From: an uncultured archaeon
GTDB taxonomy: Archaea; Asgardarchaeota; Thorarchaeia; Thorarchaeales; Thorarchaeaceae
Direction: 5' to 3'
DNA length: 32,000 bases
NCBI GenBank assembly: GCA_964354495.1
Contig: CAYHAA010000001.1
Location: 338,075-370,074, forward strand
In this document: piece after piece, positions 2,096-9,457 of the stretch
Layout: each line of letters begins with the position of its first letter
Position numbering within the stretch: position 1 is the stretch's first letter
Program-made: the position numbers and the translations under genes
Notes under the pieces: model-generated
The model's input: the letters and a program-made list of their open reading frames with translations, nothing else
What the model was told of the DNA's origin: nothing
The model's database searches: none

Positions 2096-5000
2096 CTAAT
2101 AGACTGTGAACTGCTTCTTCACTATCTCTACTGCACGATTTGGAAGCGGACGACCGTGTTGCGAGATGACTGCATCTAGGTAGTAGCCTGAAACAACATC
2201 GATGGGTGGGGTCAGCCATCTCACAATCATTGTGTTCTTCTTTCCGCTTCCCAAAGGAATCTCGTACTCCTTGATAATCTCACGTCTTGACATTAGTCTA
2301 AGATTGATTGCCAGGCCCTTCAGATCCTCTCTTGCGCTCTCCACATCCACAACAATATCGACTGGAGTGAGTCTGGCAACAAGACCTGGAATCTCATCAC
2401 CTGTTTCGTTTCTTATTGAAAAGCCGACCTTGAAGAATGGTCTTTCAATAGCCTTGACTTTGAACCGTTGGCTATTCTCATTGGATTGAGTTCCACAAAT
2501 CAGGCTCGCCTTCAAGTGTGCTGTGCTCATTTCTGCACCTAGGGGCACTCTGAATTGGACTGGAATCATTTTTGCTTTTTCAGGTTCTAGGTTGATGTTT
2601 CTCTCAATCAGGCTGAAGTTACCAGCAATTGATTCAAGGCTCACAGAAAGACTGCAATCTGTTGGCTCTACATGGCCGCACTCGATCTGTATTGTCAGCT
2701 GAACCAATTGGTCAGGTAGCGTGTAACTGGGAAGCCCGATGAAATCAATCGCTGCAAAACCTGCCGTGGGACCACCAACGATGTCTATTGTTGCCGAACG
2801 CCGATCCATCTCCATGTCTGCATAGCTGAGCACTGCAACAAGCGAGACCGTCTTTGGGCTTGTCGACGACTGTGGAGCTGGGATTGTGATGGGACCGAAG
2901 GCTAATGATAGGTTCTTGCTCTGTTTTACAGGCTGCCGAAGGACTATGTGCTCCTCACCATCAGGAAACACGAAAGATAGGGAGAGAATAGCTGGGTCTC
3001 CCTGCTCCATATTCCTTCGGATTCGCAACCATCCTGACACCTTGCCTCCGATGTGAGAACGTTGGGGAACTCGAAGTGAGTCTAGATTGATGCGAGTCGC
3101 GATTTGATCTATACTGAATCTGTCCGACTCGGCTGATGCTATGAGACTTCCCCTCTCAATTACGCGAGTGCGAATTACACCAACTCTGTCGGACTGAGTC
3201 ATCTTCTCCACATGAGGGACTCTCCACCGAAAAGTCGCTGTTCTGCCCATGAACTCCCCGTATTGCAGGCTTTCAATTTCAGTCGACTTCTCTGATTCTG
3301 AATAATAGTCAACAATCATCCTTGCTGATGTTCCAATCACCTTGCTCCTATCACTTACAACTACACTCCCCGTCACGAATTCGCCAGGCATGTAACTGCT
3401 TTTCAAATCTGATTCTAGGATGGCTTGCGGCCCCCTTCTCACAAATCCCACGTAGAAGGGCTTTGATGTTCCTTCAGCTATTTCCATATTCTCTTCGTTA
3501 AGCAAGCGAATCTGGAGAACACATCTCTCAACACCTTCAGCAGCATCCGGTGGAATTAACAGAGGCGGCAGGTGTGAACTCTCAAGGACCGTGATTTCTC
3601 CTCCCTCAATCTCTAGCATCTCTCTAGTTCCGACTATGACGCGTTCGAGATTGGGTGCCAGTATATTGATTTGACAGCTGACGAATGATTTCGAAGGATA
3701 ATTGGTTTCGATTTCTCCGACAAAAAGAACAGGCGTCTTGCCGTCTGCAAACTGAGTTGTCGTGCCTGGTCTGATTGATGCACTCATCCAATACGTGTTG
3801 ATAGTACTAGTAAAACTGATCTGGCGGCCTGCAAAGCCCACTTCCGCAATTACGTTGTAGGCAGTTGTGTCCTTTCGAGTTCTGAAGACAACTCGGGAAA
3901 CATGGATTTCTCCCGCTTCGATTCTGTCAACTGTCAGGACATTGCCATCCACAGTATTCCTGCGAGAGTCTTCTATTGAGTACTTCACAGTCAGGCTCTC
4001 GAGGCTTCTACCAGTACTATTGCGGACGAGGATGTTGAATTCTGCCTCTTGACCCGCGAATGCTCTATCAGAGTCTATGACGATTTCAGGTTCAAGCCCC
4101 TTCCACCAACATAGCCACGTAGGAAGATGCGGGGCTCCTTCAATTGGATCGTAGAGCCAGTTGGTGCTACATTCTCTCGTGACCTCTGCTAGACGTTTCA
4201 AGAGTGCAACCATATTGAAATCGGATTTTGCAAATACATCGAGCTGAAAGTCTGCCTCAGTTGTCCTCGGATTTACGTACTCACTTCCGAATATCGAAAC
4301 GAGCAATGCTTGAATGAATGGATTCTCAACAACCTTGAGGTCGTCCAGCTCATCGCGAATCAGGTAGAGCATTGAAACAACGGCGTCTCCAATGTATCTG
4401 TTCCGTCGTGTTGAATCAATAATGCCTAAGTCAGACACTTGATGATTGTAGACTGTAAGGAAATCATCCTCACCCTCGCCAGGCTTGAATGGACCCCAGA
4501 GTCCGGCAGCCACTGCAGAGGCTCTATTTGCGCTTAGTGATTTTGCACCAACATCTAGCACTCTCTGGCCTTGATTGACCATGCGTTTAGCTTTTAGAGC
4601 AAGAGCTTGGAGGATTAGTGCTAGTCCCATCCTTCTTGGAATACTCAGCTGAGTATCAAACACTCGAAGTTCAATCGTTCCGTAGTCTGTGTACGGATAG
4701 CAGTCTACCATTCTTGCATAGCTTCTGTTTACATGCTTTGCAAATGCTTCCTTGTCTGCTATCCTGATGTATGGAATCATCTCAAACTCGTTAGTTGGAC
4801 CCATTTGTGTTGTGTTCTTGAACAGCCTAATTGATCTCTTGCAACGGGGTGCACGGAACACGCCTTTGTCATCTATCGTTATTTCATCGCTTGTCTTCTT
4901 GTTTTCAAATGGCGAATTCACGGATAATGCAATGAGATGCGGAATGAAATTGCGGATCATGTTATAGACAGCGATTTTGGTGGTTTCATCAACTTCCGGG

Positions 5001-5521
5001 CTGAGAATGTGATGGTGTTCACCAAATGACAGATTGCGTAGGTACTCCTGTGTTGGATTCAGGCCAGTCGATATGAGAACCGCTTGGGAATCCTTGGGTA
5101 TGGACTCATATGAGATAGCTATCAATGTCTGTATCCACCATGCAAGCTCTTCGAGTGTCGTGCACGGAGGCGTTGCGACTTCCAGAATCCAGGTCAGGCT
5201 GACAACATTCGGGTCATGTCCCAGGAGAGTATATTCCCTTAGCTGTCCCGCAGGATTCTTATACGTGGCAACTATTCGTGAACCTCGTTCTCCTTCTTCT
5301 GTCTGCGCAGAATGATCATATTTCTGTCTGACAGTTTCCACTGATGAGGACCTGATTTTCTTGTCAAGAAGCCCCTTTGCGCTTGAGACTATCTTGTCGA
5401 ACAGATCTAAGACGTCTTCTCCACGAATCCAAGTACCATCTTTGCGAATGACCTGAAGTTCAACCTCTATGCCATGAGGAAAGGGCAACTGCATCTCTGA
5501 ATCACTTGAGGTCGATGTCAT
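2096..5521 (-). CDS. Glutamate-cysteine ligase family 2 (GCS2/YbdK-type carboxylate-amine ligase) fused to about six C-terminal beta-sandwich (Ig-like) domains, 1141 aa
   Basis: GIEVELQ (ExE), LEVATPPC, STGLNP, FGEHHH, IPHLIALSVNSPF, RSIR and YGTIELRVFD match the GCS2 catalytic motifs. The C-terminal ~665 aa is strand-rich with repeated domain-start and domain-end patterns. ATG at 5521 is preferred over GTG 5530 because AGGTG lies just upstream. Confidence 0.85.
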   Translation of the reverse strand: MTSTSSDSEMQLPFPHGIEVELQVIRKDGTWIRGEDVLDLFDKIVSSAKGLLDKKIRSSSVETVRQKYDHSAQTEEGERGSRIVATYKNPAGQLREYTLLGHDPNVVSLTWILEVATPPCTTLEELAWWIQTLIAISYESIPKDSQAVLISTGLNPTQEYLRNLSFGEHHHILSPEVDETTKIAVYNMIRNFIPHLIALSVNSPFENKKTSDEITIDDKGVFRAPRCKRSIRLFKNTTQMGPTNEFEMIPYIRIADKEAFAKHVNRSYARMVDCYPYTDYGTIELRVFDTQLSIPRRMGLALILQALALKAKRMVNQGQRVLDVGAKSLSANRASAVAAGLWGPFKPGEGEDDFLTVYNHQVSDLGIIDSTRRNRYIGDAVVSMLYLIRDELDDLKVVENPFIQALLVSIFGSEYVNPRTTEADFQLDVFAKSDFNMVALLKRLAEVTRECSTNWLYDPIEGAPHLPTWLCWWKGLEPEIVIDSDRAFAGQEAEFNILVRNSTGRSLESLTVKYSIEDSRRNTVDGNVLTVDRIEAGEIHVSRVVFRTRKDTTAYNVIAEVGFAGRQISFTSTINTYWMSASIRPGTTTQFADGKTPVLFVGEIETNYPSKSFVSCQINILAPNLERVIVGTREMLEIEGGEITVLESSHLPPLLIPPDAAEGVERCVLQIRLLNEENMEIAEGTSKPFYVGFVRRGPQAILESDLKSSYMPGEFVTGSVVVSDRSKVIGTSARMIVDYYSESEKSTEIESLQYGEFMGRTATFRWRVPHVEKMTQSDRVGVIRTRVIERGSLIASAESDRFSIDQIATRINLDSLRVPQRSHIGGKVSGWLRIRRNMEQGDPAILSLSFVFPDGEEHIVLRQPVKQSKNLSLAFGPITIPAPQSSTSPKTVSLVAVLSYADMEMDRRSATIDIVGGPTAGFAAIDFIGLPSYTLPDQLVQLTIQIECGHVEPTDCSLSVSLESIAGNFSLIERNINLEPEKAKMIPVQFRVPLGAEMSTAHLKASLICGTQSNENSQRFKVKAIERPFFKVGFSIRNETGDEIPGLVARLTPVDIVVDVESAREDLKGLAINLRLMSRREIIKEYEIPLGSGKKNTMIVRWLTPPIDVVSGYYLDAVISQHGRPLPNRAVEIVKKQFTVY

Positions 5522-5530
5522 TCTTAACAC

Positions 5531-6202
5531 CTAGTGGGTCGTGGTGGCTTCGAGAATTTCTGCAATCTTGGGTACATTCCCTGCAAGTGTTGAGGAGAGC
5601 GTCATTTCTAGAACCACAACATTTCCAATATCTCTTGCCAATTCAGTCAGCTTGTATGTGAGCAATCCTCCCCCGAATTCACCATCATCCTCAAGCACTT
5701 GGAGGTTCAGCTCTCTGAGCTTCTCCTTGAATGTCGATATCTCTTTCGCATTACCATATCTGTATCTTGTTCCTAGGATTACTGCTTTGCTGCTATCTAT
5801 GACAGCAGGTAATGACGACCACCTCAGATTGATTATCAGTTTGGATGTCTTGAGTTTGAGCTGTGCTCTGATGATCTTCATGATGGAATCACATGTCGCT
5901 GGTGATTCGCTTCGGTCTGAGTCTTTTATGATGACCGGCAATCTGAACCCTTTCCCTCTAAGCCCCTCAAACGCGTCGTGAATTGGATCGCCCTTGATGT
6001 CGGCGGTCAACGCACATACAATGCCAGTTATTGAACCCTGAACTAACAGACCACTTGTAGAGATGTCATCTACTCGCAGGTTGCTTTCAATGGATTCCAG
6101 ACTAGTGTGGAGACTGGATAGTCGCTGTAAGAGACTGCCAAGAATCTGCTCTGCCCTTTCTAGTTCTCGGAAAAGGTCTGCTCCTTCACTAGCACTGGTC
6201 AT
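5531..6202 (-). CDS. N-terminal coiled coil plus degenerate N-formylglutamate amidohydrolase (FGase)-like fold, probably catalytically inactive
   Basis: C-terminal half follows the FGase pattern (LIINLRW ~ lldlHS; VILGT; EFGGGLLT ~ PyxGGxit; VVLEM ~ aiQiE), but the His metal ligands are missing. The stop lies 9 nt before the ligase ATG. Confidence 0.55.
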   Translation of the reverse strand: MTSASEGADLFRELERAEQILGSLLQRLSSLHTSLESIESNLRVDDISTSGLLVQGSITGIVCALTADIKGDPIHDAFEGLRGKGFRLPVIIKDSDRSESPATCDSIMKIIRAQLKLKTSKLIINLRWSSLPAVIDSSKAVILGTRYRYGNAKEISTFKEKLRELNLQVLEDDGEFGGGLLTYKLTELARDIGNVVVLEMTLSSTLAGNVPKIAEILEATTTH

Positions 6203-6227: not shown

Positions 6228-6294
6228 GCTCAACAAGCAACAGCTCCCCTCACTCGTTATTATCTTTCCTAGTTCAATGCAGTTCTAAGGAGGA

Positions 6295-6732
6295 TTAAAC
6301 ATCTGCAATCAGGCTCATCAACTCATCAATCTTTGCCCTAAGTTCCTTCAGACGATACCAAGTTGACTCACGCCCACTTTGATCTGCAAGTTTCCTAACG
6401 ATGATACCATAGTCAACGCCAGCAAGGTCTCCTAGCAAGATGAGTGCACTCTTTGACTTGAAGTGAGTTTCGTTCACTCTGCCGTTTCTGAACCTAGTGA
6501 CTAGAGGTTCAAGCGCTCGTTCGGCCGAATCTATCTCGATTAATGCACCGCGGTAGTTGCTCTTTGGGTCCTTTATGGCATACCCTCCGACCAAAGGAGT
6601 CATTCCAACGCCTAATGACCCTTTCCCGATATCATCAAGTATGTCCATAGCTTTCTGGTAAAACTCATCACCGTCAACTAGACACTTCTTGATTGCACTC
6701 AAGATTCGAGGTCGTTCGATGGAGTCGGTCAT
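6295..6732 (-). CDS. Hypothetical alpha-helical protein, 145 aa
   Basis: Strong SD GAGGTGA before ATG 6732 (MTDSIERPRIL...). The longer ORF-track start overlaps the oppF terminator. No recognised motif. Confidence 0.7.
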   Translation of the reverse strand: MTDSIERPRILSAIKKCLVDGDEFYQKAMDILDDIGKGSLGVGMTPLVGGYAIKDPKSNYRGALIEIDSAERALEPLVTRFRNGRVNETHFKSKSALILLGDLAGVDYGIIVRKLADQSGRESTWYRLKELRAKIDELMSLIADV

Positions 6733-8863: not shown

Positions 8864-9232
8864 GATTGTACACTCCATCGAGCCAAAAATGGCCCTGGGC
8901 AGGGCATTTGCCTCACCCTTCTTGGGATACCGCTGCCATGAGGTCGGCTTAAATATGTTGCTTTCAAAGACATTCGTCCGAAGGCCGTCTGACACTGGCA
9001 TGCCCACTGGTACCAGATGCCAATCACGAAAGTGAAGCTATCTTTACATCTGCCATATCGGAGCTTGGGTCAAGGCTCTTGTTCGATTAGAAAGAGTAAA
9101 AGCACTTTGATGTATAGTCGCCACTGAACAAAGATGTCAGGAATGACAATAAGATCCTTTCCAAGGACTCAGAATAGACCTCAGAAGCGAATTCTCTTGA
9201 TTCCCTTCATTCTTATGATAGGTGGTTGGACT

Positions 9233-9457
9233 ATGACATTTGTCCACTTCCTCCAGTTCCTAGGAACCATCATTGCCATGACAGGAGCACTGACAACATT
9301 CCTAGTGGGGGCATTGTATGCAGATCTCTGGGCTTCACATCGAAGGACACAACAGATGATAGAAGAACGCCAAGAAGAAGGTCGCGAAACTCCTGATGTC
9401 ACTGCGGATATTCCACCAGCTGAAGATCCTTTTGAAGAGACCTATGGTGAAGAGTAA
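9233..9457 (+). CDS. Small single-pass membrane protein with an acidic tail, 74 aa
   Basis: SD AGGTGG before ATG 9233; hydrophobic segment FLQFLGTIIAMTGALTTFLVGALY followed by an E/D/P-rich tail. Confidence 0.55.
   Translation: MTFVHFLQFLGTIIAMTGALTTFLVGALYADLWASHRRTQQMIEERQEEGRETPDVTADIPPAEDPFEETYGEE

Follow-up and report, generated by a model that had tools for sequence, protein, structure and literature searches.

Why would a protein with the fold of a hydrolase, but apparently without the residues that make such a hydrolase work, be encoded directly in front of a ligase? This question is raised by a 32,000-nucleotide stretch of DNA (hereafter the window) from an uncultured archaeon of the Thorarchaeaceae (contig CAYHAA010000001.1, positions 338,075 to 370,074), in which a gene at 5531-6202 on the minus strand, here called the partner, is followed immediately by the gene for a large GCS2/YbdK-type ligase. 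Asgard archaea are the closest known archaeal relatives of eukaryotes, and conserved Asgard modules of unknown chemistry are rare entry points into Asgard cell biology. An earlier note, made from the sequence of the window, had read the partner as a catalytically dead protein of the N-formylglutamate amidohydrolase (FGase) fold which, together with the ligase, looked like an enzyme plus a substrate adaptor, a product reader or the modification target itself. We found no paper on this pairing. The analysis described here finds the partner genetically locked to the ligase, and suggests that it is most likely a pseudoenzyme serving as a non-catalytic accessory subunit.

The partner and its linkage to a ligase gene

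The gene at 5531-6202 encodes a real, conserved protein. It is an ATG-started open reading frame of 223 codons plus a TAG stop, present in a single copy in its own genome, and its product has 22 close homologues, near-full-length and of about the same size, which come exclusively from Thorarchaeota. An exhaustive HMMER search with the protein gathered 45 cluster representatives at identities down to about 22%, nearly all of them 213-233 residues long, and the distant members that carry names are for the most part labelled Thorarchaeota. Scans of the 223-residue sequence against Pfam (E up to 1), NCBIfam and PADLOC returned no match. The AF2 model (pLDDT 84) begins with a long helix at residues 4-42 (6077-6193, minus strand), which carries five conserved heptads and an L-E-R-A motif, and continues as a beta-alpha-beta-alpha-beta-beta-alpha-beta-alpha-beta-alpha domain at residues 52-223 (5534-6049, minus strand). 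Across 32 family members, 79% of the a/d heptad positions between residues 7 and 42 are L, I, V, M or F, versus 17% elsewhere; this continuous hydrophobic pattern on one long helix is that of a coiled coil, which the earlier note had placed at about residues 8-44. Within Thorarchaeota the invariant polar residues include D72, D96, R97, E99, R127, R146, D172, E175 and E199, and the C-terminus is not conserved.

The ligase is the downstream cistron (2096-5521, minus strand). It is 1141-1144 residues long, of which the first ~460 form the GCS2/YbdK-type carboxylate-amine ligase domain (Pfam GCS2, E 9e-6; TIGR02050, E 7e-16), followed by a long beta-sandwich tail, and its orthologues are highly conserved. 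The tail of the window ligase also gave a weak Pfam match to MG2 (E 0.13). The junction between the two genes, read directly at 5519-5533 on the minus strand, is TAG-GTG-TTAAGA-ATG, so that the partner stop codon overlaps the Shine-Dalgarno site of the ligase (TAGGTG), as had been claimed. The same TAGGTG with a start codon 6-7 nucleotides further on recurs in four related Thorarchaeota loci (L001, L002, L003 and L006), and in other lineages the partner stop and the ligase start overlap or abut, for example as TAAAATG, TAGATG or TAAATG. Upstream, the promoter-like element AAAGATAATAAC (BRE/TATA-like, with a presumed promoter function) lies at 6256-6267 on the minus strand, ~55 nucleotides 5′ of the partner ATG, and is near-identical at the same distance in five related Thorarchaeota loci, with one G-for-A change in L006; a TTTATT closer to the ATG is not conserved. 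The gene does have a TATA-like element, as the earlier note had said. These features suggest that partner and ligase form a two-gene unit read from the conserved promoter-like element.

The linkage extends well beyond the window. Labels with f, g and L denote families, genera and loci, the families lying within the Asgard phylum. At each of the 30 partner-bearing loci examined, Loki-type ones among them, the partner gene directly precedes the ligase gene and shares its strand. Six further Thorarchaeota loci preserve the block of oppD/F, a 145-residue protein gene, partner, ligase and DUF92, including those in which partner identity falls to 22-34%. A profile of the partner family (A2, 32 members) gave weak matches in other Asgard families, and at nine of nine such distant loci the match lay directly upstream, on the same strand, of a ligase like that of the window (P0002; phmmer E 1e-70 to 1e-186). 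Co-occurrence was tallied per family in 400 Asgard-phylum genomes with a profile of the partner domain (A3, 55 sequences) and the ligase core. The partner domain was found in 210 genomes and the ligase in 250, and no family had the partner domain without the ligase. For example, f22 has the ligase in 112 and the partner in 112 of 135 genomes, and f1 has the ligase in 74 and the partner in 65 of 85. Both occur in every genome of f2 (1), f3 (1), f15 (5), f16 (6), f18 (2), f19 (2) and f20 (1); f17 has 1 ligase and 1 partner in 3 genomes, f21 has 11 ligases and 10 partners in 14 genomes, and f23 has 4 and 3 in 4. Two families have the ligase and no partner, f11 (17 of 22 genomes) and f13 (12 of 12), and 19 other families have neither. 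The pairing thus spans 12 Asgard families, whose flanking genes in some cases differ considerably, and the adjacency noted in the window holds across Thorarchaeia and other Asgards. The partner is genetically locked to the ligase.

Some of the flanking genes have recognisable domains. At locus L017 of f2, a family of the same order as the window genome, the gene next upstream overlaps the partner start and encodes an 805-residue EAP30/Vps36 (ESCRT-II) protein (L017:5562-7976, plus strand; E 3e-19). The equivalent position at f3 locus L031 is held by a 794-residue protein gene with just weak CarboxypepD_reg matches.

Descent of the domain and loss of catalytic residues

All structure searches put the partner domain in the phosphorylase/hydrolase-like three-layer fold, and its alpha/beta/alpha layers superpose on solved FGases. 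Foldseek searches of the PDB with the partner model placed PbaB and nucleoside phosphorylases at the top, with PbaA also among the best, and shape searches of AFDB and Atlas returned several families, among them FGase, M14 and related ones (Atlas FGase clusters at TM 0.60), although scores of this kind do not by themselves separate families inside the fold. FGase is singled out because two independent lines agree. In language-model features, the 100 nearest named clusters included 39 FGase and 54 Gamma_PGA_hydro clusters (together 93), with scores of 0.91-0.93. In profile-profile comparison with hhalign, A2 matched an alignment of 28 genuine FGase (PF05013) proteins from Asgard genomes with a probability of 94.2% (E 1.2e-7) over 166 columns, spanning partner residues 53-223; the real alignment scored 57.8, against at most 16 for the FGase alignment when reversed and for 20 shuffles of its columns. 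Alignments of other families of the same fold, built likewise, gave probabilities of 7 (Peptidase_C15, PF01470), 0.2 (PAC2, PF09754) and 0.1 (PNP_UDP_1). The relationship to the FGase superfamily therefore covers the whole domain and is specific as against families of the same fold. By hhalign, PbaB/PAC2, purine nucleoside phosphorylase/MTA nucleosidase and pyroglutamyl peptidase, all leads from the fold searches, were ruled out as specific relatives.

The partner does not reach the Pfam gathering score for FGase (PF05013), and one of the 32 family members matches that model, with E 0.015. Against PDB profiles, A2 found only designed helical bundles, which matched the coiled coil. Together these results bear out the FGase-type fold of the earlier note, and the domain probably descends from the FGase/poly-gamma-glutamate-hydrolase branch of the zinc carboxypeptidase-like hydrolases.

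What has become of the active site can be read from the hhalign columns. The motifs of the partner fall in the FGase order that had been proposed for them: LIINLRW lies on the D-x-H-G strand, VILGT on the conserved Gly, EFGGG on Y-x-G-G and VLEMT on Q-x-E. Some of the invariant FGase positions are kept, with FGase D95 corresponding to D72, G186 to G144, Y220 to F/Y176, G222/G223 to G178/G179 and Q239 to E/Q199. Others are lost: the His of PHGG (H77) has become T66, R128 has become P89, D132/N134/R135 of D-x-N-R have become K93/S95/D96, D172/H174/G175 of D-x-H-G have become R127/S129/S130, the catalytic E241 has become T201 (30/32) and R247 has become A207. What marks an active FGase, namely PHGG with the His/Asp of D-x-H-G, the catalytic Glu of Q-x-E, and D-x-N-R, is absent from the partner, and the presumed zinc ligands, which the earlier note had described as lacking, are among the residues replaced.

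The same emptiness is seen in a wider sample. Among 55 partner-domain sequences covering all lineages, a single residue reaches at least 60% in just two polar columns, D172 (51/55) and S/T203, and no His, Cys, Lys or Arg column reaches 60%. The most conserved motif of the superfamily is the D172-x-G-E-F-G-G-G loop (5666-5689, minus strand), which lies on the Y-x-G-G loop of FGase; G179 is present in 53 of the 55 sequences, and the aromatic residue at 176 is also conserved. Since the structural motifs are retained and the catalytic residues are gone, the partner is most likely a pseudoenzyme.

Comparison with known enzymes of this superfamily sharpens the picture. With FGase (HutG-like, PF05013; 2q7s, 2odf) the partner shares profile homology over the whole domain, with the Gly, the Y/F-x-G-G and the strand motifs in the same order. 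Unlike FGase, it has no Pfam-level match, carries an N-terminal coiled coil, always accompanies a GCS2-type ligase gene, and has had the PHGG His, D-x-N-R, D-x-H-G, the catalytic Glu and the conserved Arg replaced; the genuine FGases of Loki-type genomes lie on contigs other than that of the partner, and in the Thorarchaeota family searched there were none (0/76). PghP and PghL (PF05908) belong to the same superfamily and act on gamma-glutamyl amide bonds, the kind made by GCS-type ligases; the partner's proximity to them is seen in language-model features only (the 54 of 100 nearest named clusters). The nearest structural neighbours of PghL are 2odf and 2q7s, and its zinc ligands are His41, Glu46 and His102 (PMC6506827), from which the metal ligands of FGase were inferred by analogy. 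In contrast to this His-Glu-His site, the partner family has no conserved His, and the partner no Pfam match to PF05908.

The Loki-type form and domain shuffling

The pair takes different forms in different lineages. In f15 and f16 the partner is 247-263 residues long and the ligase, with its tail, ~1185. In f17-f23 the ligase is short (469-606 residues) and the partner is 298-728 residues long, with the homologous domain at its C-terminus. The gene order in f17-f22 loci is partner, ligase, Amidohydro_2, and a vWA protein is encoded nearby in Loki-type loci; no Amidohydro_2 gene was identified after the f23 ligases. At the f17 locus, the trio is flanked by a gene for a RACo-type corrinoid activator and by one for a 696-residue vWA protein (L015:3078-4988 and L015:9293-11380, both on the minus strand).

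A short Thorarchaeota protein and a Loki-type orphan of ~600 residues turn out to share one homologous domain. The two sets of partner domains match each other in hhalign with a probability of 95 (E 3.3e-8), the Loki-type profile finds f23 members on which it was not trained (E 1e-16 to 1e-21), and the AFDB entry A0A0F8VPL0 is matched in fold searches by both the Thor and the Loki-type models. The AF2 model of a Loki-type partner (pLDDT 89) runs from a beta-sandwich at residues 8-107 through a helical solenoid at 116-400 to the alpha/beta domain at 432-617; it is on this model that we call the head a beta-sandwich. Comparison of the profile of this head with the Thorarchaeota ligase tail gave an hhalign probability of 27 (E 7e-4). 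In Thor-type loci it is the ligase that bears sandwich domains, in Loki-type loci the partner, a shuffling that gives a Rosetta-stone-type hint of a complex. Foldseek searches with one such Loki-type partner (L014:6296-8146, plus strand; orthologues at L018-L027) also returned alpha-2-macroglobulin and complement C3/C4/C5, with E ~1e-7 (best 7e-8) but TM ~0.12, a resemblance that we do not take for homology; the L014 protein cannot form a thioester because it has no cysteine.

Possible roles of the partner

How might a disarmed hydrolase serve a ligase? We favour, with a probability of roughly 0.6 for the explanation as a whole, descent from the FGase branch included, the reading that the partner is a pseudoenzyme acting as a non-catalytic accessory subunit of the GCS2-type ligase. 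On the genomic evidence it would be made in step with the ligase, and adjacency, coupling, co-occurrence and domain shuffling suggest that the two proteins may form a physical complex. The coiled coil, or in Loki-type genomes the beta-sandwich and helical solenoid, could serve in docking or in oligomerisation. The degenerate acyl-glutamate pocket, in which the aromatic-Gly-Gly capping loop survives, may hold or sense a substrate or product of the ligase, and would thereby set the specificity or activity of the enzyme. Inactive peptidase-fold subunits are used in substrate recognition elsewhere, as in nicastrin of gamma-secretase and GPAA1 of GPI transamidase. Unlike the partner, these are subunits of eukaryotic membrane complexes and of M28-like ancestry; the likeness drawn here is not one of sequence, and the recognition role of the partner is putative. 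In 210 of the 400 genomes the ligase of this Asgard module comes with a constant companion, translated alongside it and recognised here as a disarmed FGase-type hydrolase. If the reading is right, the pair adds a clear case of a pseudoenzyme taken into service by an enzyme whose reaction forms the kind of bond that the ancestor of the pseudoenzyme broke.

Several observations weigh against this reading. Three genera of Thorarchaeota (g3, g6 and g14) retain oppF, the 145-residue protein gene and the ligase, and lack the partner between the last two. The ligases of f11 and f13 (977-1086 residues; loci L038-L042) have no partner either, nor have the larger second ligase paralogues of f15 and f16 (1233-1399 residues; L035:2648-6349 and L036:1618-5817, both on the minus strand). 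At f13 locus L041 an Amidohydro_2 gene immediately precedes the ligase, and the 463-residue protein in the corresponding position at f11 locus L038 has no Pfam match. Of the interpretation offered in the earlier note, a disarmed FGase-fold protein tightly paired with the ligase stands, and the protein is not indispensable. The residues R97, E99, R127, W128, R146 and E199, invariant in Thorarchaeota alone, are not retained in Loki-type members, so any binding site would have to be lineage-specific. Directly compared with FGase, the Loki-type domain gives an hhalign probability of 2, which makes its link to FGase a transitive one through the Thorarchaeota profile.

The rate of evolution is a further difficulty. 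Measured as identity to the proteins of the window, the partner stands at 22-58% where the ligase core stands at 68-84%. At L007 the values are 22% for the partner, 72% for the ligase core, 47% for the ligase tail, 56% for the 145-residue protein and 84% for OppF, and at L006 they are 34%, 68%, 41%, 54% and 81%, respectively. The partner is thus the fastest-evolving gene of the block; its length, heptads and lineage-specific invariant polar residues are nonetheless retained. A scaffold under loose constraint, lacking any specific pocket, could also evolve at such speed.

Indeed, the partner might be purely a scaffold or assembly factor: its stable domain, having neither a ligand pocket nor any part in specificity, would assist the folding or, by way of the coiled coil, the oligomerisation of the large ligase. 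This would account for the rate, for the loss of the gene in three genera, and for a superfamily-wide conservation made up of structural residues (Gly, aromatic, hydrophobic) and one Asp and nothing else; the proteasome assembly factors PbaB and PbaA are, moreover, among the best Foldseek matches in the PDB. We nevertheless hold it to be unlikely, as the many polar residues invariant within Thorarchaeota exceed what a passive scaffold needs, and profile similarity to PAC2, at a probability of 0.2, is absent. A further candidate is a cryptic hydrolase that would still cleave an amide bond, at a site that is new and needs no metal, such as D172 together with S/T203 or E199, and would erase the product of the ligase. 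Hydrolases of this fold commonly adjoin amidoligases, D172 and S/T203 are retained superfamily-wide, and E199 is on the strand of the lost catalytic Glu, two residues ahead of it. Yet every metal and catalytic residue of FGase has been replaced, no His or Cys is conserved, and Loki-type members have Asn at E199 and have lost R146, while their operons already possess an Amidohydro_2 enzyme directly after the ligase; a hydrolytic partner is accordingly quite improbable.

The partner might instead be what the ligase acts upon, a target or carrier whose carboxylate (D172, for instance, or E175 in the exposed loop) is activated or to which a group is attached. Ligases of the glutamine synthetase fold can act on protein carboxylates, as PafA does on Pup; D172 is nearly invariant and sits in a Gly-rich loop, and strict co-translation would supply one target per enzyme. 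On the other hand, the C-terminus of the partner is not conserved, E175 is not retained in Loki-type members, and lineages with a highly conserved ligase have lost the partner, which is not expected of a sole substrate, and we give the idea little credence. That the two genes have nothing to do with each other, their adjacency being inherited synteny with no functional coupling, is very improbable. The whole Thorarchaeota block, with its opp genes, DUF92, Band_7 and NfeD, is syntenic, and inertia could explain adjacency there; but the pair stays adjacent where the flanks differ (an ESCRT-II-like protein, a coiled-coil protein, a prenyltransferase, vWA), in several lineages the partner stop overlaps or directly adjoins the ligase start, and no family without the ligase has the partner domain.

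The accessory-subunit reading can be carried one step further. If the wider module includes an eraser, this is likely to be the separate Amidohydro_2 enzyme and not the partner. More speculatively, and in our estimate improbably, the pseudo-FGase could be the recognition subunit of an Asgard-wide, ATP-driven system for writing and erasing amide marks, comprising the GCS2-type ligase, the Amidohydro_2 eraser and vWA/Cdc48-N-type adaptors, in which proteins or peptides would carry gamma-glutamyl-type marks for the dead acyl-glutamate pocket to read or present. Were this so, it would amount to a previously unknown protein-modification pathway, pupylation-like in its logic, in the archaeal relatives of eukaryotes.

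Neighbouring genes in the window

Upstream of the partner, across a gap of 92 nucleotides, lies the orphan gene for the 145-residue protein (6295-6732, minus strand), recognised by synteny and conserved in Thorarchaeota, with two oligopeptide-transporter ATPase genes beyond it. The protein has no Pfam, NCBIfam or PADLOC match and is 54-73% identical among the Thorarchaeota loci compared. In Atlas its nearest cluster is its own (90% archaeal, mainly Thorarchaeota), followed by bacterial clusters without names at 0.89-0.90. In genera that lack the partner, this gene remains directly before the ligase, for example with an 18-nucleotide gap in L033.

Further along the window, at 9134-9457 on the plus strand, divergent genes for a transporter permease and an ATPase enclose a small open reading frame of 107 residues, hydrophobic in its middle and with an acidic tail, and in all related loci the same place is occupied by a gene for a protein of 80-123 residues.
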